Of a stretch of 64,000 bases of DNA, positions 7,024 to 44,631 are shown piece after piece. Below the pieces are notes generated by a model, which was given only the letters and a program-made list of their open reading frames with translations, did not search any database and was not told where the DNA came from. Origin of the DNA: Escherichia phage vB_EcoM_011D4; the sequence record MT478991.1; one strand, given 5' to 3'. The position numbers and the translations under genes were made by a program. How positions within the stretch are numbered: the first letter of the stretch is position 1; every line of letters starts with the position of its first letter.

Positions 7024-9024
7024 ATGACTCTATTATCACCGGGTTTCGAAACGAAAGAAACTACTCTCTCCACTACCATTGTGCAATCTGCGACTGGTCG
7101 CGCGGCACTGGTGGGTAAATTCCAATGGGGTCCAGCTTTCCAGATTATTCAAGTAACTAATGAAGTTGAATTAGTTAATAAATTTGGTCAGCCGGATAAT
7201 AACACCGCAGACTATTTCATGAGCGGGGCTAACTTCCTCCAGTACGGTAATGACCTGCGTGTTGTTCGTGTATTGAATAAAGAAAAAGCAAAAAACGCAA
7301 CTGCCCTAGCTGGTAACGTTGAGTTTGAAATCACAAACGAAGGTTCAAACTATGAAGTAGGCGATACCATCAAGATTAAACATAACCGTCAAGATATTGA
7401 AACGGCTGGTAAAGTAACTAAAGTTGATGGTGATGGTAAAGTTAAGGGCGTATTTATCCCAACTGGTAAAATTATCGCTCACGCTAAAGCAATCGGTGTA
7501 TATCCAGAACTTGATGGCGGTTGGACGGCAGAGTTCAATTCTTCGTCAGGTAACGGTAGTGCGGCGCTGTCAGTAACTAAAATTGTTACTGATTCCGGTC
7601 TTCTGTTAACGGATCTGGAAACTTCCCGCGCCAATATCACAAATCAAACTTTCTTGACTAAACTCCAGAAGTATGATATGCCAGCGGTAAGCGCGATCTA
7701 TGCTGGTGAGATTGGCAACTCGCTGGAAGTTGAAATTCTGGCACGTAGTGCGTTTAAGAACACTGCACCGGATCTGACCATGTATCCTTATGGTGGCGAG
7801 CGCACCGCAGCACGCAACCTGATTCCATATGCACCGCAGAATGATAATCAATATGCATTTATTGTTCGTCGCGATGGTGTTGTGGTAGAATCCTATGTAC
7901 TGTCTACTCTGAAAGGGGATAAAGACGTATACGGCAATTCTATCTACATGGACGACTTCTTTGCTCGTGGTTCTAGCCAGTACATCTATGCAACCGCTCA
8001 AGGGTGGGTAGATGGTTTCAGTGGTATTATCTCTCTTGCTGGTGGTGTTTCTGCTAACGAAGCAACGACTGCTGGTGTTGGTGCTGATCCGTTCATCGGT
8101 GCGATGATGCAAGGTTGGGATCTGTTTGCTGAACGAGAATCTATTCACGTAAACCTGTTGATCGCTGGTGCATGTGCTGGCGAAGGCGATGCGTTCTCTA
8201 CCGTACAGAAACATGCTGTTTCCATCGGTGATGAGCGTCAGGATTGCTTAGTAATGGTTTCTCCGCCGCGTAGCACTGTTGTTAATATTCCGGTGACTAC
8301 CGCAATTGATAACCTGATTGCATGGCGCGAAGGTTCAGGAAACTATAATGAAAACAACATGAACATTAATACCACTTACGCTGTTATTGATGGTAACTAC
8401 AAATATCAGTATGACAAATACAACGACGTAAACCGTTGGGTTCCGTTGGCTGCTGATATTGCTGGTTTGTGCGCTCGTACTGATGCTGTATCCCAGCCGT
8501 GGATGAGTCCGGCAGGTTATAACCGTGGTCAGATCATGAACGTGGTTAAACTGGCAATTGAGCCTCGCAAGGCGCACCGCGATCGTCTGTATCAGGCCGC
8601 AATTAACCCGGTAATCGGTGCTGGTGGTGAAGGGTTTATCCTGATGGGTGATAAAACCGCTACGACTGTTCCTAGCCCGTTTGACCGCATTAACGTTCGT
8701 CGTCTGTTTAACATGCTGAAAAAGAATATCGGCGATTCAAGCAAATACAAACTGTTTGAAAACAACGATAACTTTACTCGCGCTTCCTTCCGTATGGAGG
8801 TTTCGCAATATCTCAGCACGATTCGCTCTCTGGGTGGAATTTATGACTTCCGAGTACAATGCGACACCACGAATAACACGCCGGATGTAATTGATCGTAA
8901 CGAATTTGTTGCTAGTATGTTCATCAAACCAGCAAAATCGATCAACTATATCATGCTCAATTTCACTGCTGTTGCAACTGGTTCTGATTTTGACGAAATT
9001 ATCGGTCCAGCTAACCAGGCATAA
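7024..9024 (+). CDS. 18: tail sheath protein gp18
   Basis: 666 aa, matches T4 gp18 in size and position. Confidence 0.95.
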   Translation: MTLLSPGFETKETTLSTTIVQSATGRAALVGKFQWGPAFQIIQVTNEVELVNKFGQPDNNTADYFMSGANFLQYGNDLRVVRVLNKEKAKNATALAGNVEFEITNEGSNYEVGDTIKIKHNRQDIETAGKVTKVDGDGKVKGVFIPTGKIIAHAKAIGVYPELDGGWTAEFNSSSGNGSAALSVTKIVTDSGLLLTDLETSRANITNQTFLTKLQKYDMPAVSAIYAGEIGNSLEVEILARSAFKNTAPDLTMYPYGGERTAARNLIPYAPQNDNQYAFIVRRDGVVVESYVLSTLKGDKDVYGNSIYMDDFFARGSSQYIYATAQGWVDGFSGIISLAGGVSANEATTAGVGADPFIGAMMQGWDLFAERESIHVNLLIAGACAGEGDAFSTVQKHAVSIGDERQDCLVMVSPPRSTVVNIPVTTAIDNLIAWREGSGNYNENNMNINTTYAVIDGNYKYQYDKYNDVNRWVPLAADIAGLCARTDAVSQPWMSPAGYNRGQIMNVVKLAIEPRKAHRDRLYQAAINPVIGAGGEGFILMGDKTATTVPSPFDRINVRRLFNMLKKNIGDSSKYKLFENNDNFTRASFRMEVSQYLSTIRSLGGIYDFRVQCDTTNNTPDVIDRNEFVASMFIKPAKSINYIMLNFTAVATGSDFDEIIGPANQA

Positions 9025-9057
9025 TCAGTAAATTAGCATAGATTAAAAGTTAAATCA

Positions 9058-9078
9058 AGCGGGGAGAAAATCCCCGCT
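9058..9078 (+). terminator. hairpin (weak terminator/attenuator) after gp18
   Basis: AGCGGGGAG-AAAA-TCCCCGCT, poor T-run. Confidence 0.45.
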
Positions 9079-9097
9079 CTATTAAGGAATATCAATT

Positions 9098-9592
9098 ATG
9101 GCACTCGATTTGAATGATATTACACGCGGTTTCGAGTCTGGCGATTTTGCTCGTCCTAACCTGTTTGAAGTTGAGATCCCGTATCTGGGGCAAAACTTTA
9201 AGCTGATGTGTAAGGCTGCGACTGTCCCGGCTGCTACCGTAGAAAAAATTGCTATAGGCTATCAAAACCGTAAAATTAACATCGCTGGCGACCGTGTATA
9301 CGACGACTGGACCATCACTGTATTCAACGATGACGCACACAAGATCCGTGATGCTATCGTTGCATGGAGCGATCAGACACACGGCACTGGTTCGGCGATC
9401 ACTGGTGCAACTCCTGCACAATATAAGAAACAAGCTATTGTTCGTCAACTTAACCGTAACACCGAATCAACTAGCGAAAAAACATTGTACGGTATTTTCC
9501 CTACCAACGTTGGTGAAGTAACCCTCGATTGGGAACAAAACAACGAAGTTGAAACGTTTGAAGTTACTTTTGCTATCGATTGGGTAGAATAA
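9098..9592 (+). CDS. 19: tail tube protein gp19
   Basis: 164 aa, T4 gp19 size and position. Confidence 0.95.
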   Translation: MALDLNDITRGFESGDFARPNLFEVEIPYLGQNFKLMCKAATVPAATVEKIAIGYQNRKINIAGDRVYDDWTITVFNDDAHKIRDAIVAWSDQTHGTGSAITGATPAQYKKQAIVRQLNRNTESTSEKTLYGIFPTNVGEVTLDWEQNNEVETFEVTFAIDWVE

Positions 9593-9604
9593 ATATATTA
9601 TCAT

Positions 9605-9623
9605 GCGGGGAGAAGTTCCCCGC
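9605..9623 (+). terminator. hairpin (weak terminator) after gp19
   Basis: GCGGGGA-GAAGT-TCCCCGC followed by CTAATTT. Confidence 0.45.
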
Positions 9624-9650
9624 CTAATTTCTCCCAATTCGAGGTGAATA

Positions 9651-11216
9651 ATGTTTAGTAGATTAAAAATGCTTGCGCGTTGGGCTGATTTTGACAACGA
9701 CAAATACGAAGAACAAATTAAAGATAAAGCAGAGTCTATCGCCGCACCTAAAAACAATGATGGTGCTACGGAAGTAGAAATTAACGATAATTTACCTGCT
9801 AGCGCGTGGAACTCTCTTACCCAGCAATTTTACAGCACCGACCAGAAAATCAGCACAACTAAGCAATTAGTTAACACATATCGCGGTTTGATGAATAACC
9901 ATGAAGTCGAAAACGCTGTACAAAATATCGTTAACGATGCGATTGTATTTGAAGAAGGTCATGAAGTTGTTTCATTAAATCTTGAGGCGACTGGCTTTAG
10001 TGAATCTGTAAAAGAGCGCATTCATGAAGAATTTAAAGATCTTTTAAACACTATCCAGTTTGATAGGCGCGGTCAGGATATGTTCCGTCGCTGGTATGTC
10101 GATTCGCGTATTTTCTTCCATAAAATCATCGGCAAAAATCCAAAAGATGGTATCGTAGAATTACGCCAGCTTGACCCACGAAATCTTGAATATGTTCGCG
10201 AGATCATTACAGAAGACACACCGGAAGGTAAAATTTATAAAGCAACGAAAGAATATTTCATTTACACTGTAGGCAATAGCTCTTATTGCGCAGGTGGTCA
10301 AGTATTCTCTCCTAACAGTCGCGTTAAAATCCCGCGTAGTGCTATTACATACGCTCACAGCGGCTTGATGGATTGCGATGATAAATATATCATTGGTTAT
10401 TTGCATCGGGCGGTTAAGCCAGCAAACCAGCTTAAATTGTTGGAAGACGCAATGGTCGTTTATCGTATCACGCGTGCACCGGAACGCCGAGTGTTCTTTA
10501 TTGATACCGGAAACATGAACAACCGCAAGGCTGCACAGCACATGAACTCAGTGGCACAGTCTTTTAAAAACCGCGTTGTTTATGATGCATCGACTGGTAA
10601 ACTTAAAAACCAGCAAGCAAATCTATCAATGACAGAGGACTACTGGTTACAGCGTCGAGATGGTAAAGCAATCACCGACGTTACTACTTTACCCGGTGCA
10701 TCCGGTATGAGTGATATCGATGATATTCGCTACTTTAACCGTAAATTGTATGAAGCGTTGCGTGTGCCATTGTCACGCAGCAATCTCTCCGATGCTAATA
10801 TGGTGATCGGTGGTGACGGTTCAGAAATTACTCGCGATGAGTTGGAATTTTCGAAATTCATTAGAACTCTGCAATCACAGTTTTCGGAAGTATTGCGCGA
10901 TCCTCTGAAATATAATCTGATTCTCAAAAATGTAATTACGGAAGACGATTGGGATCGTGAAATAAATAATATCAAGGTGGTTTTCCATCGGGACTCTTAC
11001 TATACAGAAGTTAAAGACGCGGAAATTTTAGAACGTCGAATCGGTCTAATCGAACGTATTACACCTTACATTGGTAAATATTTCTCTAACCAGACAGTGA
11101 TGCGTGACATTCTGAAATATACCGATGACCAGATGGACACCGAGAAGAAACAGATCGAAGAAGAAGCGAACGATCCGCGCTTTAAACAAACTCCCGATGA
11201 AATAGAGGATTTTTAA
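9651..11216 (+). CDS. 20: portal vertex protein gp20
   Basis: 521 aa, T4 gp20 size and position. Confidence 0.95.
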   Translation: MFSRLKMLARWADFDNDKYEEQIKDKAESIAAPKNNDGATEVEINDNLPASAWNSLTQQFYSTDQKISTTKQLVNTYRGLMNNHEVENAVQNIVNDAIVFEEGHEVVSLNLEATGFSESVKERIHEEFKDLLNTIQFDRRGQDMFRRWYVDSRIFFHKIIGKNPKDGIVELRQLDPRNLEYVREIITEDTPEGKIYKATKEYFIYTVGNSSYCAGGQVFSPNSRVKIPRSAITYAHSGLMDCDDKYIIGYLHRAVKPANQLKLLEDAMVVYRITRAPERRVFFIDTGNMNNRKAAQHMNSVAQSFKNRVVYDASTGKLKNQQANLSMTEDYWLQRRDGKAITDVTTLPGASGMSDIDDIRYFNRKLYEALRVPLSRSNLSDANMVIGGDGSEITRDELEFSKFIRTLQSQFSEVLRDPLKYNLILKNVITEDDWDREINNIKVVFHRDSYYTEVKDAEILERRIGLIERITPYIGKYFSNQTVMRDILKYTDDQMDTEKKQIEEEANDPRFKQTPDEIEDF

Positions 11217-35148: not shown

Positions 35149-35667
35149 TTAGTTATTTTTTAATTGCTCATCTTGCAATAGGGCAATCACATGCTGGCGA
35201 TGTTCTTCCGATTGAGGCACACCGAAAAAGTTTGTTTTGTAGAAATACTCTAATCGGTCTTCTCGTGTGCTCTCTTCCATCATGATCGCGGGTAGTCCGA
35301 GATTTCGGAAACGTCGCTTTTCTGCTGGCGTAAAATCACTGTAATACAACATAGAATCATCATTACAAGCAATGCTAAACTCATCCTTCATAAAGGAGAA
35401 TATTGCGTTTAAACGCTGTTTACCGTCCACGATTTCGATCTCATAGCGAGAGCCATCATCAATCTTAGCCATTGCGATAGCACCAACCGGAAAATCATTA
35501 ATCAGGTTTTCGATAAACATACGTTTGTTTTCGGTGTCCCATACTAAAGGACGCTGATAATCTGGGTTCATGTTGATATAGCCATCTTCTAACCATGCAT
35601 CATAAACAGAGATGACAAAGTTTTTAGTATTGGTATAGTAACGGCGTTTAGGCGTTAAACGGTTCAT
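35149..35667 (-). CDS. DUF262 / ParB-like nuclease-domain protein
   Basis: DYQRPLVWD...FPVGAI...IVDGKQRLNAI matches the DUF262 signature; start taken at MNRL with RBS AGGAGA. Confidence 0.65.
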   Translation of the reverse strand: MNRLTPKRRYYTNTKNFVISVYDAWLEDGYINMNPDYQRPLVWDTENKRMFIENLINDFPVGAIAMAKIDDGSRYEIEIVDGKQRLNAIFSFMKDEFSIACNDDSMLYYSDFTPAEKRRFRNLGLPAIMMEESTREDRLEYFYKTNFFGVPQSEEHRQHVIALLQDEQLKNN

Positions 35668-35668
35668 G

Positions 35669-35998
35669 TTATAGTCTCCTGAATGGATCATCACGTAAAT
35701 CAATATCTTTTAAGAACTCATCCCATGAATGGCGGATGTTGTTCTTAATTCTCCAGATAAGAGCAGGGATTGAACGCTCTCCCATCTGGAAGTATGGATC
35801 ATATGATCCGTATGCCCAATATGCTACTACAATTCCACAATCAGCGCAATAGTATTCTATTTCACTTGCTGGCGACCAAAGTCCATCAATATGATCGGTG
35901 ATCTTGCTTTCGATGTTATGGCTATGACAATCAGGGCAACGGATGCAATGACCTTGTTTATCGTAATTTGACGTTAGCGAATACTTAAACAATCTCAT
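35669..35998 (-). CDS. zinc-ribbon protein
   Basis: 109 aa; CIRCPDC...CADC; start/stop coupled with flanking genes. Confidence 0.5.
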   Translation of the reverse strand: MRLFKYSLTSNYDKQGHCIRCPDCHSHNIESKITDHIDGLWSPASEIEYYCADCGIVVAYWAYGSYDPYFQMGERSIPALIWRIKNNIRHSWDEFLKDIDLRDDPFRRL

Positions 35999-37287: not shown

Positions 37288-37455
37288 TTATTTGTTAATT
37301 TCTGGTGCGTTGCTAGGATAGTAACCTTCTTTAACTCCGAGGTATTTCGCAACCATCCCTACAATCTTCTGTGCTACTACAATGTCAAATTTCAGATAAT
37401 CTTCACCGTAGGTTTCAATGATATATGCTTCACATGCTGCTTTAGTCTCGAACAT
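37288..37455 (-). CDS. hypothetical protein, paralogue of 40544..40711 (copy 1)
   Basis: 55 aa MFETKAACEAYIIETYGEDYLKFDIVVAQKI.GMVAKYLGVKEGYYPSNAPEINK; not in ORF track. Confidence 0.5.
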   Translation of the reverse strand: MFETKAACEAYIIETYGEDYLKFDIVVAQKIVGMVAKYLGVKEGYYPSNAPEINK

Positions 37456-38220: not shown

Positions 38221-38279
38221 TTCTTTTTTTAAAAAATTTTATGCAATAAAAAAGCCGACGCTAAGGTCGGCTAATAAAA

Positions 38280-38588
38280 TCATTTAGACAAATAATCATT
38301 CTGTGCAATCCGGTCGGCGTATGCTGGTGTTACGTCAATCGCAATCACTTTAACGCGTGCTTTCTTGCGACCTGGGTTTTCTCGTAACCAGTGCTCATGA
38401 CCGTGCACATTTTTATACTTTGATGCTTCTTCGAAGGTACGGATCGGACCTGGGTAATCAGCGTAAAGGATCTCTAGATCTTCGGTGATGTAAAAATATA
38501 CATCGTAATTGCTGTTCTCTAGCTTAAGCAGAGACTTTCGGAACATTGGGAGATTTTCGCGGGTAAATTCAAAGATATTATCTTTCAT
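38280..38588 (-). CDS. HxHW-family small protein (paralogue A)
   Basis: Start at internal MKDNIF with RBS GAGGA; motifs YFYITEDLEIL, HGHEHW, VIAIDV. Confidence 0.5.
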   Translation of the reverse strand: MKDNIFEFTRENLPMFRKSLLKLENSNYDVYFYITEDLEILYADYPGPIRTFEEASKYKNVHGHEHWLRENPGRKKARVKVIAIDVTPAYADRIAQNDYLSK

Positions 38589-38611
38589 AGTATTATCCTC
38601 AATAGTTGGAT

Positions 38612-38633
38612 GAAAAGGGGGCTTAACGCCCCA
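38612..38633 (-). terminator. intercistronic terminator-like hairpin
   Basis: Minus strand GGGGCGTTAAGCCCCC + TTTT. Confidence 0.5.
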
Positions 38634-38637
38634 TATA

Positions 38638-38925
38638 TTAAAACAGTCCTTCCTGTACACCGTAATAGAGTTCGTCGCTGATAATTTCATTAATGCGACG
38701 GTGTGCATATTCCTGATTTGCGAAGTTGTCAGCAAGTTCTACTTTAGTTTCTCCGTCATGAGTCCATTTAGTGATAACTTTACCATCTGCAAATTTGAAG
38801 TTGAACTCTTTAGCTACCGCATCGCGTACCAGACGTGCAAACTTATTGTTGCGGATTGCATTGTCGGTTTCGTGTGCAGCGTGAGCGAATTTGTTAACTT
38901 TCAGAGTGATAGTAATGTATGCCAT
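38638..38925 (-). CDS. hypothetical protein, paralogue of 41912..42223
   Basis: 95 aa; shared NAI.IR..R.A.AKEFN.K segment. Confidence 0.5.
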   Translation of the reverse strand: MAYITITLKVNKFAHAAHETDNAIRNNKFARLVRDAVAKEFNFKFADGKVITKWTHDGETKVELADNFANQEYAHRRINEIISDELYYGVQEGLF

Positions 38926-38971
38926 AATTTGATTCTCCTAGTTAGAAAGTGTATCTCGTTTCGATGGGTGT

Positions 38972-39000
38972 ATTATGCTATACACCCGACCTCATGTCAA
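38972..39000 (-). promoter_or_regulatory. early promoter with stem-loop over the -10 (PeSL-like)
   Basis: Minus strand TTGACA-N17-CATAAT; GGGTGTAT..ATACACCC inverted repeat. Confidence 0.6.
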
Positions 39001-39006
39001 CACTTT

Positions 39007-39285
39007 TTATAAAATAATTTTTTGATATTTTTCTATGATGTTTGTGTAGGTCACATCAACCGCTAGCACCGTTGCTTCGAATCCACCGTCTAGCCAATGG
39101 CTATGATCTCTTTCATCAAAGAAGCCGAGGCCAATACGAAGACCATCCTTAAACTCTGCGCGTACATTTAGATCATCATCGATAAACAGATAAAACCATG
39201 AATTTTTACTAGGATTGATGATACAACCTTTCAGATTAGGGAGAATATCACGACTAAGAATAAACTTATCACCTACTTTGAACAT
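39007..39285 (-). CDS. HxHW-family small protein (paralogue B)
   Basis: Start at MFKVGDKF; FYLFIDDDLNV, HSHW, VLAVDV. Confidence 0.5.
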   Translation of the reverse strand: MFKVGDKFILSRDILPNLKGCIINPSKNSWFYLFIDDDLNVRAEFKDGLRIGLGFFDERDHSHWLDGGFEATVLAVDVTYTNIIEKYQKIIL

Positions 39286-39299
39286 AATATTTTCCTCAC

Positions 39300-39608
39300 T
39301 TATAAAGTTTGACCGTTGTTTTTCGCGTAATGCTGAATGCGTGCTTGATCTGCTTCCGCTGGTGATAGATTCCATGCGATCACTACAACTTCTGACGCAT
39401 CATGATCATTATCACTTACCCAATGATTGTGATTCATACAGTTATTTGCTATCGCGTGAGAAAATGATTTCATCACTGGAGACGTATAATCATAGTAACG
39501 GATTTTCAGATTTTCATCAACGTACAAATAGATCGTATAAGGTTTATATTCAGTAACCAGTAACAGACAGTTACGCAATTCTGGGAAAATCTTTTTAGTT
39601 AATTTCAT
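39300..39608 (-). CDS. HxHW-family small protein (paralogue C)
   Basis: 102 aa; YLYVDENLKI, HNHW, VVVIAW. Confidence 0.5.
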   Translation of the reverse strand: MKLTKKIFPELRNCLLLVTEYKPYTIYLYVDENLKIRYYDYTSPVMKSFSHAIANNCMNHNHWVSDNDHDASEVVVIAWNLSPAEADQARIQHYAKNNGQTL

Positions 39609-39810
39609 ATTCTAGTTCTCCGTAATACACAGTAATCCATTTTTCTTCATACTTTGTATCTTTCCAGCACACAATCCCGTTTACTGTGCAATCTTTGGAA
39701 TTGACGAATGATTCATATTGTTCTGCATCTTCCATCATTGCATGAGCGGTCTTTTCATCGAATATATCGCAGATCGCTTTATATGCTCGATAATCTTTAA
39801 ATTTGCTCAT
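39595..39810 (-). CDS. hypothetical protein, tandem paralogue 1 (MSKFKDYRAY)
   Basis: Listed ORF starts at a TTG; ATG at 39810; about 50% identical to the next gene. Confidence 0.45.
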   Translation of the reverse strand: MSKFKDYRAYKAICDIFDEKTAHAMMEDAEQYESFVNSKDCTVNGIVCWKDTKYEEKWITVYYGELEYEIN

Positions 39811-39812
39811 AA

Positions 39813-40028
39813 TTAACACCAATCAAGAGTTTTTGAGAAAACCTCTATCCATTGTTGAGTATATGCGGTTTCTTTCCATGACACAATACCAGTCGAATAA
39901 TGGTTTTTGTTTCCAGAAAAGGACGGGCATTTTGATGCATCTTCCATCATCTTTTCGGCGAACTCTGGTGCGTATACTCGCAAAATCTGTTGATATGCTT
40001 TGTATTCTTTAAATTTGCTCATAATCAT
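39813..40028 (-). CDS. hypothetical protein, tandem paralogue 2 (MIMSKFKEYKAY)
   Basis: 71 aa; shares MSKFK.Y.AY, MMEDA, GIV.WK.T.Y with the neighbour. Confidence 0.45.
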   Translation of the reverse strand: MIMSKFKEYKAYQQILRVYAPEFAEKMMEDASKCPSFSGNKNHYSTGIVSWKETAYTQQWIEVFSKTLDWC

Positions 40029-40287
40029 TCACTACCTTATCAGCTTCTTTTGTTGTTTTTACATCAACTGCGATAACTCGTAAAGGTTCGTCATGGTTCC
40101 ACCAGTGGTCATGAATATCGGCTTGTGATTTATCACCAAAGGAATCACGAATATCATTTTTACATTTATAGCTAATGTGACCGTCATAGTCAACATAAAG
40201 GTAATTATCGAAAATCGGCGTTTTTAAGATCATACCGAAAAATCTTTCTTTGTGTGTCTTATCCAGCGTTGCAGTAATTCGCATCAT
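40009..40287 (-). CDS. HxHW-family small protein (paralogue D)
   Basis: 92 aa; YLYVDYDGHISY, HDHWW, VIAVDV. Confidence 0.5.
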   Translation of the reverse strand: MMRITATLDKTHKERFFGMILKTPIFDNYLYVDYDGHISYKCKNDIRDSFGDKSQADIHDHWWNHDEPLRVIAVDVKTTKEADKVVNDYEQI

Positions 40288-40299
40288 AATATATTCCTC

Positions 40300-40479
40300 T
40301 TAGAAAGGGATGGTCATTTCTTGAGCTTGTACATTCTCGTTAGGATTAAACTTCATCCAACCGATATTGTCTACCAGCATATGCACATTTTTATCATATC
40401 CTACGTGGGTAGTCAATACTGTATGTGCTTTACCTTCAATGATGAGTTCCATGTACTTCTGAACTTCGATAGCTTTCAT
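40300..40479 (-). CDS. hypothetical early protein (59 aa)
   Basis: ATG after GGAGAATCAAA leader; not in ORF track. Confidence 0.4.
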   Translation of the reverse strand: MKAIEVQKYMELIIEGKAHTVLTTHVGYDKNVHMLVDNIGWMKFNPNENVQAQEMTIPF

Positions 40480-40511
40480 TTTGATTCTCCGTTTGTTGTC
40501 TTTATGGGAGT

Positions 40512-40540
40512 ATCTTACTACTCCCTTTAATCATTGTCAA
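40512..40540 (-). promoter_or_regulatory. early promoter with stem-loop (PeSL-like)
   Basis: Minus strand TTGACA then GGGAGTAGTAAGATACTCCC hairpin; -10 approximate (TAAGAT). Confidence 0.5.
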
Positions 40541-40543
40541 CTA

Positions 40544-40711
40544 TTATTTGTTAATTTCTGGTGCGTTGCTTGGATAGTAACCTTCTTTAACACCCAGATA
40601 TTTTGCAACCATTCCGGTGATCTTCTGTGCTACTACGATATCGAATTTCAGGTAGTCTTCACCGTGGTTTGCTACAATGTATGCTTCGCATTCTGCTTTA
40701 GTCTGGAACAT
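40544..40711 (-). CDS. hypothetical protein, paralogue of 37288..37455 (copy 2)
   Basis: Starts at internal Met MFQTKAECEAY of listed ORF 40544..40747; near-identical C-terminus to copy 1. Confidence 0.5.
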   Translation of the reverse strand: MFQTKAECEAYIVANHGEDYLKFDIVVAQKITGMVAKYLGVKEGYYPSNAPEINK

Positions 40712-40745
40712 TTTTGATTCTCCTATATCTCGTTGGTATGTGTGC

Positions 40746-40774
40746 ATTATAGGGGATCACAGATCCCCTGTCAA
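40746..40774 (-). promoter_or_regulatory. early promoter with palindromic spacer (PeSL-like)
   Basis: Minus strand TTGACA-GGGGATCTGTGATCCCC-TATAAT. Confidence 0.7.
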
Positions 40775-40779
40775 CAACT

Positions 40780-41073
40780 TTATAATGCTTTATATGCGTA
40801 TTTCATAAATTTGTCTGCCACTTCATTGGCATGTTCAGATTCTACGCCTGATTCGAGAACAATAGCTAGGTCGGTTTCGTCATTCCCGCCGTACCAATGA
40901 TTTGATGTTCGATTTTTTTCAATTGGAAATTGGTCACTTTTATCTGTGCGACAAAATACATCTAAATGCTCGTCTATGTAAAAGATCCAATCCTCATAAA
41001 GAATAACGGTATTAGCCAGATTTTTATTGCCTTCAACGAAAGGTTCAGCTACAAATAGCTTAGTTTGTTCCAT
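40780..41073 (-). CDS. HxHW-family-like small protein (paralogue F, divergent)
   Basis: Start at MEQTKLF with RBS GAGGA; IFYIDEHLDVF, NHWY. Confidence 0.4.
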   Translation of the reverse strand: MEQTKLFVAEPFVEGNKNLANTVILYEDWIFYIDEHLDVFCRTDKSDQFPIEKNRTSNHWYGGNDETDLAIVLESGVESEHANEVADKFMKYAYKAL

Positions 41074-41089
41074 AGTAATTTCCTCAAAA

Positions 41090-41281
41090 TTATACAGCTT
41101 CGTAAACTTCCCAATGTCCAACACCAGCACGCTTAACGAAAAGGTTTTCTTTGATGTTATTCATAAACGTCTGGATGGATTTAATGCGGTTGGAAGGTTT
41201 CCAGTCTTCGTTAGCATTGCGGCGATACATTATAACATTACCAGATCGCTTATATTCAGCAACCATTTTAAGACCACACAT
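41090..41281 (-). CDS. hypothetical protein
   Basis: 63 aa, RBS GAGGA; preceded by GGGAG..CTCCC hairpin. Confidence 0.4.
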   Translation of the reverse strand: MCGLKMVAEYKRSGNVIMYRRNANEDWKPSNRIKSIQTFMNNIKENLFVKRAGVGHWEVYEAV

Positions 41282-41337
41282 AATATTATCCTCAATTTGT
41301 GGGAGAGTATTACCCTCCCAATTATTGTTATACTACA

Positions 41338-41640
41338 TTACGCAAAATGGCGTGTCAATGCTTCTTTTGCTGTTCCGCTAAGATTCTCGATCTCTCCTGG
41401 CATAACATCAACCGCCAGAACTTCTACAACATCCTCTGATCCTAACCAGTGAGTATGACCTTTGTAGAACTTGATATCCCATTTAACGCTATCGCTAGCC
41501 CACCACACATCACCGTCGATAAAGTTGATGTAAAGCACACTACGCCACATTGAATTAATTACTTTCAATACTGCGCCTTTCATCTCTTCCACGGTATGGT
41601 CTTCCATTTTGAAGACCTCACCTACCTGAACTTTTGCCAT
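41338..41640 (-). CDS. HxHW-family small protein (paralogue E)
   Basis: 100 aa; YINFIDGDVWW, HTHW, VLAVDV. Confidence 0.5.
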   Translation of the reverse strand: MAKVQVGEVFKMEDHTVEEMKGAVLKVINSMWRSVLYINFIDGDVWWASDSVKWDIKFYKGHTHWLGSEDVVEVLAVDVMPGEIENLSGTAKEALTRHFA

Positions 41641-41871: not shown

Positions 41872-41901
41872 ATTATAGGGGAGTTTAACCTCCCCTGTCA
41901 A
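41872..41901 (-). promoter_or_regulatory. early promoter with palindromic spacer (PeSL-like)
   Basis: Minus strand TTGACA-GGGGAGGTTAAACTCCCC-TATAAT. Confidence 0.65.
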
Positions 41902-42310: not shown

Positions 42311-42655
42311 TTATTTTTTCATGAGCTTAATTGCTTCTTCCATAGCCAACACATTTCGATAGTTAGGGTATCGTGTTAGATCGTCATACATTCGCTTAAG
42401 GGTGGAAACTTCCTCAAACTCTGGGTTTTCTAGATACAGTTGAACAAATTGTTTCTCTACCATCTCTGCTTTTAGCTTGTCTGCTTGTTCCTGTTCATAT
42501 GATTTAGTTGGACCCAACACCAACAAAATGATAAAGGTGATCAACGGGCTAATGATCAATGATAGGATAACATAACCGATAACGCTACGGTTTAAACGGC
42601 TTGCATACATGCCTACCAGGAAAACAAAAAGGATATAGATAAACAGAAAGAACAT
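42311..42655 (-). CDS. small membrane protein (two N-terminal TM helices)
   Basis: 114 aa; hydrophobic MFFLFIYILFVFLVGMY and VILSLIISPLITFIILLVLG. Confidence 0.55.
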   Translation of the reverse strand: MFFLFIYILFVFLVGMYASRLNRSVIGYVILSLIISPLITFIILLVLGPTKSYEQEQADKLKAEMVEKQFVQLYLENPEFEEVSTLKRMYDDLTRYPNYRNVLAMEEAIKLMKK

Positions 42656-42662
42656 ATAATGG

Positions 42663-43136
42663 CTACTCCTTATTTTCGCGCTCGTACTTTTCGAAATAAA
42701 ATTCTACTGGCTGGTCATGAATTGACAGCAAGCCAAAGCGTTTAGCCGCTCGCAATCCCATATTGCGCTGAATGTACTTCTGGAAGTTCTCGCGTATACA
42801 CTTACGCCAGTATTCTAAGCCCATACAACTTTTATAAAGATTGCATTGCACACACGCCGGATTCATGTTATCAAGTATATCATGTTCCGGTTTATGCATT
42901 CCTACAACCTTATACTTCCACGATCCATCATCATTACGGGCAATTCGTCCATTTTCATCATAGACTACCTTTGAGCGTCGCAATACTGGTTTGATGTGGT
43001 CTGCGTGCCAGCGATCCCCTAGTTCCTCGCCACAATAGGCACAACGTCCACCATATTTCATTTTCAGGATCTGGCGTTGCTCTTTCTTTGACAATTTTTT
43101 AGGTTTAGGGGCTTTCGCCCCTTCATTATCACACAT
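42663..43136 (-). CDS. HNH endonuclease (putative freestanding homing endonuclease)
   Basis: 157 aa; CAYCGEELGDRWHADHIKP...HDILDNMNPACVQCN; start overlaps ligase stop by 8 nt. Confidence 0.7.
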   Translation of the reverse strand: MCDNEGAKAPKPKKLSKKEQRQILKMKYGGRCAYCGEELGDRWHADHIKPVLRRSKVVYDENGRIARNDDGSWKYKVVGMHKPEHDILDNMNPACVQCNLYKSCMGLEYWRKCIRENFQKYIQRNMGLRAAKRFGLLSIHDQPVEFYFEKYERENKE

Positions 43137-44631
43137 CGAATACCTCTTTTACTGTATTTGCAGTGGTCTTGTCGTAGCGAATACGTTTGATGATTGGGAG
43201 AAATAAAGAGAACTCCGGTTCATCTTCTTTACGTGATTTGCTGCGGATATACCCGTTGCATGTCATCTCAATGACTTTTCCAATCAGGTTATGACGGTCA
43301 GCCCATAACATTTCTCGGTCGAGTTCATTTCGACGATCGAACGGAATTACACGTTCAATACCAACATCATCTTTTTCGGTTGTGGTGTCTGTCAATCCCG
43401 ATCCGGTGTTAGTCGTCATTCGTCCGCACGCACTACGGACAGTAAAACCGCCTACCTTATTGGGGTCTTTACTATGCGGATATACATCAACAATTTCCGC
43501 GTCGAAGTCAATCACTTCTTTAAATTTAACCTGATCTTTACTACGGCGATCTTCAAATACACCATGTAAATTTTTAAGGATAATACCTTCTAAGCCCATG
43601 TTTACATAACGATGATATACTTCGCGAGCTTCATCGATATTGTTAACTACAGTGTTTTCGATGATCTGAACACGAGGATCGTTAAGTTCTTCAACAATCT
43701 GTTTTAGTTCTTCGAATCGATCTTTATATTGCTTCGTTGCCTTCTCGTTTCCATAATACACATCACGGTCGATAACATCCCAGACAGTGTAAACAATACA
43801 TTGGGCTTCTTCTTTTGGAATAGTTCCTTTAAGTGATTTGTTGAGGATACCATTTCCGGTCTGACGATCTGCAACAACGGATTGTTTCACTGCTTCCGCT
43901 ACTGGCGTTAATGGCATTTCCTCTTCTTCAAATATCCATGACAGAGTACCATCATAAACGCTTTCAACGAAGTTCTGCGCTGGTGTTTGCGAAAGGGTAG
44001 GCATATATACCAATTCGCCATCTAGAACAATTCCACGGCCTCGTAGACGCTCTAAAACCGCAAACAAATCATCAAGTCCTTGATAGGTATTACCTGAGCG
44101 GGTATAGATTGCTAATGTTTCCCCGTCAATATCAGCCATACCACGAGCGCCATCGCTTTTAAGTTGTGCATACGCCGGATACTTGATATTAGCAATAGTC
44201 TTATCAGAACATGACGATGCAAGGTGGCACGGCTGCTGGGGGATCAGTTTCTTCCATACCTTGTTTGCAGTGGTAGCTGAACAGCCGCATTCCAGATCAC
44301 GATTCAGGACCATCATTGCAACTTTAGCATCATCCTCTGACAAGCAAGTCAGAGTATCGGTAACTAGCTGTATTGCTGCATTACCAGTTACTTGACGCGT
44401 GGCAAGTTTATTTTTAAAGACCTGTAATGCACCGGATAAAGACAATACAGACGAATAGCGAGATGGTTTATCGTATTTCTTTACGCCAAACGTAACCTGT
44501 TTGCAATATGCCAGATAAAAGCATTCTTTCAGCGTTTCATTGCTTGCAGATTCTTTCAGGATCTTTTCTTTCAGCGATGTTTTGTCGGTTGCTGCAAGCT
44601 GATTAATGATATTAAGAATTGACATTTTCAC
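43129..44631 (-). CDS. 30: ATP-dependent DNA ligase gp30
   Basis: 500 aa; KSDGARG adenylation motif, LDGELVY, EGIILKN; similar to T4 ligase throughout. Confidence 0.95.
   Translation of the reverse strand: MKMSILNIINQLAATDKTSLKEKILKESASNETLKECFYLAYCKQVTFGVKKYDKPSRYSSVLSLSGALQVFKNKLATRQVTGNAAIQLVTDTLTCLSEDDAKVAMMVLNRDLECGCSATTANKVWKKLIPQQPCHLASSCSDKTIANIKYPAYAQLKSDGARGMADIDGETLAIYTRSGNTYQGLDDLFAVLERLRGRGIVLDGELVYMPTLSQTPAQNFVESVYDGTLSWIFEEEEMPLTPVAEAVKQSVVADRQTGNGILNKSLKGTIPKEEAQCIVYTVWDVIDRDVYYGNEKATKQYKDRFEELKQIVEELNDPRVQIIENTVVNNIDEAREVYHRYVNMGLEGIILKNLHGVFEDRRSKDQVKFKEVIDFDAEIVDVYPHSKDPNKVGGFTVRSACGRMTTNTGSGLTDTTTEKDDVGIERVIPFDRRNELDREMLWADRHNLIGKVIEMTCNGYIRSKSRKEDEPEFSLFLPIIKRIRYDKTTANTVKEVFDV

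Follow-up and report, generated by a model that had tools for sequence, protein, structure and literature searches.

Six paralogous small genes in the ligase-alt hyperplastic region of Escherichia phage vB_EcoM_011D4

PeSL cassettes of RB49-type phages and the six-gene locus

The ORFans of hyperplastic regions (HPRs) represent a large and almost wholly uncharacterised part of the genomes of T4-type phages, among which members of the genus Krischvirus are often isolated for therapy and biocontrol. The closest described systems are the ORFan cassettes of phages RB49 and phi1, flanked by early-promoter stem-loop (PeSL) elements (Arbiol et al. 2010, PMC2839356; Comeau et al. 2014, PMC4122927). PeSLs were defined by a sigma70 promoter (-35/-10), an AT-rich upstream tract, a GC-rich stem-loop, a conserved 5' untranslated region and an intergenic position in an HPR (PMC2839356). 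PeSL mini-circles were demonstrated in phi1 around ORF191-194 and ORF210 (PMC2839356), and the HPR ORFans have been proposed as adaptive or host-interaction genes (PMC2839356, PMC4122927). Here, we focus on six small genes, named p1 to p6, of Escherichia phage vB_EcoM_011D4 (sequence record MT478991.1), located in a stretch of 64,000 nucleotides, hereafter called the window, which belongs to Krischvirus (RB49/phi1/JSE/ECD7 group, T4-type myoviruses). These genes lie inside HPR3, which extends from gene 30 (ligase)/HNH to alt, in the same region as the published cassettes (phi1 ORF197-ORF208). The phi1 counterpart of this region, the ORF189-ORF212 cluster, is among the HPRs studied by Arbiol et al. 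(PMC2839356).

The locus resembles the RB49/phi1 cassettes in its sigma70 promoters with stem-loops, its small uncharacterised open reading frames (ORFs) and its recombinational plasticity, but differs from them in that no member of the family described below is PeSL-flanked on both sides. In both PeSL papers, the ORFs figure as ORFans without mutual relationship, and paralogy is left unmentioned (PMC2839356, PMC4122927); neither these two papers nor the Krischvirus papers examined mention the paralogy or function of these ORFs. The region and the PeSL biology being already known, what is new here is incremental, namely, one superfamily made from six hypothetical proteins, possibly with a new fold, and the swapping of its alleles. 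The six genes, whose positions in the initial annotation were confirmed, with the stop codon included, are the following:

38280-38588, minus strand: p1, 102 amino acids (aa), HEHW and VIAIDV, orthologue of phi1 ORF197, phrog_9345 (E 2e-49)
39007-39285, minus strand: p2, 92 aa, HSHW and VLAVDV, phi1 ORF199, phrog_17255
39300-39608, minus strand: p3, 102 aa, HNHW and VIAWNL, phi1 ORF200, phrog_9345
40009-40287, minus strand: p4, 92 aa, HDHWW and VIAVDV, phi1 ORF203, phrog_15972
40780-41073, minus strand: p5, 97 aa, SNHW and VLESGV, phi1 ORF206, phrog_15965
41338-41640, minus strand: p6, 100 aa, HTHW and VLAVDV, phi1 ORF208, phrog_16486

All six start with ATG behind a GAGG/GGAG-type Shine-Dalgarno site and coincide with annotated coding sequences of phages ELT4, phi1, MIZ6, JK32, Skers and G2248, the phi1 orthologues being annotated without exception as 'hypothetical protein'. 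The encoded proteins (92-102 aa) are soluble and neutral to acidic, with isoelectric points (pI) from 4.5 to 6.8, p5 being both the most divergent and the most acidic (pI 4.5). They had been described as a tandem array; the six paralogues stand, but the arrangement is not strictly tandem, since 11 other small ORFs are interleaved, p3 and p2 being the only direct neighbours.

Homology of the six proteins and their predicted fold

Alignment with MAFFT places the three shared motifs in register, and thus in equivalent positions. H66 and W67 (p1 numbering) are invariant in both a 50-sequence and a 23-sequence alignment, H64 is kept in at least 90% of the aligned sequences, and in the larger alignment V81 likewise reaches at least 90%; the invariant residues persist across sequences that are about 20% identical. 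The signatures initially attributed to all members need some correction, since the paired His of HxHW occur in five of them, with SNHW instead in p5, and V(I/L)A(I/V)DV is found in four, p3 (VIAWNL) and p5 (VLESGV) departing from it. The family is better described by a colinear pattern, applied to proteins of about 90-105 aa, consisting of a strand (F/L)Y(I/V)(D/T/N), some 25-30 residues, x-H-W, 5-14 residues, and V(I/L)(A/E)x(D/N/G)(V/L). Among the 578 ORFs read from all six frames of the window (50,874 aa in total), this composite pattern matches exactly the six, and the regular expression H.HW alone is found in five of these ORFs, each of them a family member.

Profile comparisons lead to the same result. 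When hidden Markov models (HMMs) were built leaving out one orthogroup at a time, the omitted member was in each case the best non-training match among the window ORFs, with E values of 1.3e-13 (p1), 3.3e-9 (p2), 1.3e-15 (p3), 4.4e-9 (p4), 2.8e-4 (p5) and 1.7e-8 (p6), the next ORF being at E of at least 0.1. In hhalign comparisons of orthogroup profiles, all 15 pairs were colinear (E 9e-13 to 2e-3), and p5, the weakest member, was aligned with p1 at E 1e-6 and 91% probability. Multiple alignment and HMM-HMM comparison, proposed as a check with the initial annotation, thus uphold homology, and on these sequence data we conclude that the six genes are genuine paralogues of one family. The HMM search of the 578 ORFs revealed no seventh member within the window.

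With regard to known families, the six proteins have no Pfam, NCBIfam or PADLOC match and none to PDB sequences. Pfam gave nothing even at E<=10 for KOW or DUF2829, NCBIfam gave matches far below cut-off only, PADLOC gave none, and Rfam nothing in the six-gene region. In PHROGs, the proteins are split over five groups of 'unknown function', namely, 9345 (p1 and p3), 17255, 15972, 15965 and 16486, each protein matching its own group at E 1e-49 to 1e-63. Cross-matches are weak, p2 and p4 reaching phrog_9345 at E 4e-4 and 2e-3, and the joining of these groups, p5 and p6 included, is new. No confident match to a structural or housekeeping phage protein, which would have spoken against the initial view of the family, was found in Pfam, NCBIfam, PADLOC, PDB or PHROGs.

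When 1.84 billion cluster representatives were scanned exhaustively with HMMER, 22 clusters were retrieved. Two of them, P0095 and P0103 (E 9e-13 and 3e-5, over seven and five stretches), were rejected as artefacts of summed weak hits to long repeat proteins; they also give many unrelated summed weak Pfam matches, and no single stretch is significant. A second word-indexed search with a broader alignment yielded no further lineages, single-protein scans of IMG/VR with the distant members P0089 and P0104 gave nothing, and tblastn of cultured phages with distant members returned Krischvirus only.

The fold was modelled here for p1 and p2 with AlphaFold2, with a predicted local distance difference test score (pLDDT) of 80.7 and a predicted template modelling score (pTM) of 0.78 for p1, and 89.8 and 0.85, respectively, for p2. 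Both models show the element order beta-alpha-beta-beta-beta-alpha-alpha-beta-alpha, the short third helix beginning with HxHW and the last strand being formed by V(I/L)AxDV, and BFVD models of other family members match them with template modelling (TM) scores of 0.66-0.77. The predicted fold has no significant PDB match and may be new. Taken together, the products of the six genes constitute a single superfamily, specific to this lineage, of small soluble alpha/beta proteins.

The internal-protein (IP) loci of T4 and the early host-takeover genes of T-even phages offer another comparison, as they too are variable small accessory genes with promoter/stem-loop elements. The IP loci include known anti-defence members, e.g., IPI* directed against GmrSD (PMC2839356). 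The six differ from T4 IPs in lacking sequence similarity to them and in having sigma70-type rather than T4-type promoters. An assignment to the IPs was rejected, the six N-termini being different from one another, with no conserved capsid-targeting N-terminus or (L/I)xE site of the kind cut by the prohead protease. As to the FVAE of p5, the p5-clade homologue P0090 has VTY where p5 has VAE, and the site aligns with beta1 of the fold. The Tas1 immunity protein PA14_01140 (PDB 6ox6_B) is a further known system named for comparison.

Origin of the paralogues, selection and allele replacement

The 4-kb stretch around the six genes shares 93-97% identity with 58 phage records, nearly all of them Krischvirus of Escherichia or Shigella, the top match being phage ELT4 (97.3%). 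We compared seven loci, from ELT4 (L001), phi1 (L007), MIZ6 (L008), JK32 (L009), Skers (L010), G2248 (L011) and a 169-kb metagenomic contig (L004). All seven have six members in the same order, and the six complete or near-complete genomes keep all six slots as in the window, the exception being L004, with a second p3-like copy in the position of p2.

More distant phages carry the family as well. A T4-like phage whose ligase is 72% identical, with the same ligase-alt synteny and a shorter ligase-alt HPR (L012; ENA ERZ27235406 k119_4708, 7100-10950), has two members only, both p5-like. It also holds homologues of other window ORFans (g93-, g83-, g95-, B-, g89- and g59b-like), which indicates that the whole ORFan set, beyond the six-gene family, is older than the genus. 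In a 2.1-kb contig of another divergent phage (L002), four of the six ORFs contain five family domains; among these ORFs are P0089, in which two domains are naturally fused, and copies that resemble p6, p4 and p3. Lineages resembling p3, p4, p5 and p6 were already present in a more distant phage, and the copy number varies from two in the relative with the 72% identical ligase and at least five domains in the divergent phage to six in Krischvirus, and seven in some. The copies in relatives and the fixed order across genomes indicate that the duplications are old and, judging from these sequences, the family arose by old duplications and not by a recent expansion.

Two small paralogues of another family are associated with p3, both on the minus strand and directly upstream of it:

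39595-39810, minus strand: B2, about 70 aa, phrog_8471, its stop overlapping the start of p3 by 14 nucleotides
39813-40022, minus strand: B1, about 70 aa, phrog_8471, 43% identical to B2

In a further short contig of the divergent phage (L003, 318-1100), a 260-aa ORF consists of two phrog_8471 domains fused in frame to a p3-like domain, and the order of this fusion, B-B-p3-like, is that of the window genes B1-B2-p3. This fusion may constitute a Rosetta-stone link between the two families.

Selection was estimated by pairwise Nei-Gojobori ratios of nonsynonymous to synonymous substitution rates (dN/dS) against seven relatives. The six genes are under purifying selection, with ratios of 0.03-0.5, typically 0.1-0.3, those of the ligase being 0.02-0.09. 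The dS values reach 0.5-2.5 for p2, p4 and p5 versus about 0.1 in neighbouring genes, and for p3 in L004 dS was not estimable, with dN at 0.39. The lowest amino-acid identities are 72% for p5, 58% for p4, 55% for p3 and 25% for the p2 slot, most neighbours being at 97-100%. Identity to at least one relative drops below 90% for five of the six members, versus 2 of the 17 other genes compared, B2 among them (Fisher p=0.003). High divergence combined with very high dS argues for allele replacement by recombination, the alleles of five of the six having been exchanged far more often than those of neighbouring genes. The local expansion with rapid divergence proposed initially therefore keeps its paralogy, whereas dN/dS and synteny speak against a recent expansion and against rapid evolution in place; the sequence comparisons indicate instead that each allele is under purifying selection and that diverged alleles are swapped by recombination. 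The locus clearly illustrates how allele swapping can be focused on a single gene family in a PeSL region.

In other respects, an extra 88-aa ORF lies just upstream of p6 in G2248 (L011, 5115-5381), in JSE (C4MZ33) and in the 169-kb metagenomic contig (L004, 7918-8184), and is absent from the window (between 41640 and 41658). Its sequence reads IIYVTEDD ... GNGHL, the latter replacing HxHW, ... VHLLAHSV. It aligns colinearly with the family in hhalign (E 0.002) and matches it in Foldseek (probability 1.0, E 0.019), and from its sequence it looks like a degenerate seventh member.

Early promoters, possible functions and neighbouring genes

Between about 31 kb and 64 kb, the minus strand carries the genes of the window, and the interval 37.2-42.3 kb contains eight near-consensus sigma70 promoters on that strand (42297, 41901, 40774, 39000, 38220, 37874, 37517 and 37273), each with 11-12 of 12 consensus positions. 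All eight are preceded by an A-rich tract and followed by a conserved leader, the end of which reads GGAGAATCAAA-ATG, and five of them (42297, 41901, 40774, 37517 and 37273) carry a spacer hairpin of the GGGGATC..GATCCCC type. The window promoters thus agree with the published definition of PeSL early-promoter cassettes. Those relevant to the six genes, and a terminator, are listed below:

41872-41901, minus strand: PeSL early promoter, TTGACA-18-TATAAT (12/12), with a GGGGAG..CTCCCC stem-loop in the spacer; repeat families D2 and D5
40746-40774, minus strand: PeSL early promoter, TTGACA-17-TATAAT, with a GGGGATC..GATCCCC stem-loop; equivalent to phi1 PeSL206/205
38972-39000, minus strand: PeSL-type early promoter, TTGACA-17-CATAAT (11/12); repeat family D1
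38253-38272, minus strand: terminator-like GC hairpin with T-run, directly after p1; its counterpart is annotated in phage G2248

From the positions of promoters and terminator, we infer that the PeSL at 41901 drives g59b-p6-g63-p5, while that at 40774 probably drives g55b-g59a-p4-B1-B2-p3-p2 and that at 39000 would drive g95-p1, followed by the terminator-like hairpin. In a lacZ fusion, phi1 PeSL206/205 reached about 13,000 Miller units, and most of its clones picked up promoter-down mutations (PMC2839356). This activity grounds well the predicted early expression of the six genes, and their initial designation as early genes, placed as they are behind sigma70-consensus PeSL promoters, can be retained.

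On one side, the six-gene region is flanked by an HNH endonuclease (42663-43136) and DNA ligase (gene 30, 43129-44631), and on the other by a C5-cytosine-methyltransferase-like gene, a gene with a GmrSD_N domain and two Alt/Mod-type ADP-ribosyltransferases. Early promoters together with such neighbours, the small size and acidity of the proteins, their multi-paralogue architecture, the allele swapping centred on the family and the published view of HPR ORFans as adaptive lead us to favour early accessory proteins that bind host targets, with counter-defence or host takeover as the most plausible role, a reading to which we tentatively assign a probability of about 0.4. The six would be non-essential accessory proteins produced in the first minutes of infection, which would bind stoichiometrically to host targets, most plausibly components of anti-phage defence or other takeover targets. 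A common interaction or ligand site would be formed by the core that all members share together with the invariant H-W patch, which usually reads HxHW and has conserved acidic residues nearby, and the specificity of each paralogue would come from its variable surfaces. The domains might act as homo- or hetero-oligomers, as suggested by the natural fusions (the two-domain protein and B-B-p3).

Several points weigh against this reading. No homologue found carries a known function, and dN/dS against the seven relatives shows no sign of positive selection. A phage-internal role would likewise be compatible with the conservation of the six slots throughout the Krischvirus genomes examined. No family member is the first gene after a PeSL, each being second or later, and the early timing of the six genes is itself deduced from the promoters. 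Finally, the fusions come from short metagenomic contigs and may be artefacts of assembly or gene calling.

A bolder version of the host-target reading, which we regard as possible but rather unlikely, is that the six and their phrog_8471 partners, whether fused or adjacent, constitute a hetero-oligomeric battery of early inhibitors with a new fold, in which every module would be directed at a different defence or other factor of the host through a shared H-W-centred site. If true, this battery would be a modular, recombination-swappable multi-target counter-defence locus specific to RB49-like phages, which have been reported to lack the T-even hydroxymethylcytosine-glucose DNA-modification pathway. 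Should counter-defence hold, the family would represent a new class of inhibitors; otherwise, it would be an ordinary lineage-specific ORFan family. In practical terms, six unknowns become one tractable target, for which a single structure and a single mutational design on the H-W patch would serve all members, and the locus is a defined one for mapping determinants of host range or defence evasion.

Among the other explanations, the proteins could be phage-internal regulators, for instance SH3/KOW-like modulators that bind RNA or protein and act on transcription, translation or replication of the phage and not on host processes. A KOW/Spt5 name is indeed attached to one p2 orthologue, but it is supported by no profile, not even by a Pfam KOW match at the permissive threshold given above, and the neutral-to-acidic character of the proteins is atypical of nucleic-acid binders. 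The family is absent from all other T4-type genera, which places it outside the conserved T4 machinery, and allele swapping is unusual among core regulators, so that we find this role distinctly unlikely.

Less probable still is a sponge for a small molecule or immune signal, in which oligomers would sequester a nucleotide-type messenger in a pocket made of H-x-H-W and acidic residues, in the manner of Tad2/Acb. DUF2829 (Tad2, AcrIIA7; PDB 9eib, 8kbi) was rejected at the sequence level, hhalign giving a probability of 0.1% and E 0.43 with an alignment of three Tad2 sequences and one DUF2829-like sequence, and the hallmark motifs GWNGKG and DxLAEDW are absent from the six.

We judge equally improbable a metal-binding protein or mini-enzyme, with the HxH pair and a conserved Asp/Glu coordinating a divalent metal. 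HxHW in five of the six, the retention of its first His in most homologues, the conserved acidic residues in YIDED and AxDV and an acidic residue usually 4-6 positions past HxHW would agree with such a site. However, p5 and a number of its orthologues have S or D in place of the first His, the loss of this His is not accompanied by a co-varying loss of the AxDV Asp, the alignments contain no conserved Cys, and no cupin, amidohydrolase, metallo-beta-lactamase or other metal-binding family was matched. The metal site that the initial annotation had read from the paired His thus finds little backing, the first His not being invariant in the p5 clade and no compensating pattern being seen.

Functionless or selfish cargo, multiplied by PeSL-mediated recombination and mini-circles, would suit a region known for PeSL mini-circles and ORFan shuffling (PMC2839356) in which nearby small ORFs are duplicated too (g55a/g55b and B1/B2), but is scarcely credible given intact ORFs with Shine-Dalgarno sites in all genomes examined, a folded domain predicted with high confidence, residues invariant at about 20% identity and, above all, dN/dS ratios that stay at 0.03-0.5 even where dS is 0.5-2 and largely refute it.

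Concerning the neighbouring genes, the window segment 35998-36714 (minus strand) encodes a protein of 238 aa, for which relatives bear the annotation DNA methyltransferase, with C5-cytosine-methyltransferase-like motifs recognised by eye (FxGxG, PPC and ENP) and no Pfam match at E<0.001. Krischvirus SAP contains glucosylated methyl-deoxycytidine (methyl-dC), whereas the near-identical (99.96%) TB34 has canonical cytosines (PMC13390438); the gene of the 238-aa protein may bear on this difference. At 35149-35703 (minus strand), a 184-aa protein carries the GmrSD_N (DUF262) domain (E 7e-20), and its position is kept in relatives. This domain is more familiar from the type IV restriction enzymes of hosts.

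The genes g55a and g55b (37288-37455 and 40544-40711, minus strand), both with upstream PeSLs, share 87% protein identity, and a 172-nucleotide stretch is 85% identical at the DNA level, from which a recent duplication or gene conversion within the region is deduced. A likeness between g95 and g103, seen by eye, was not significant by BLASTP. Lastly, the ORF at 42311-42655 (minus strand) encodes 114 aa, the N-terminus of which is strongly hydrophobic (MFFLFIYILFVFLVGMY...); among the seven compared genomes, it is present only in G2248, which points to a variable cassette beside the HNH gene.

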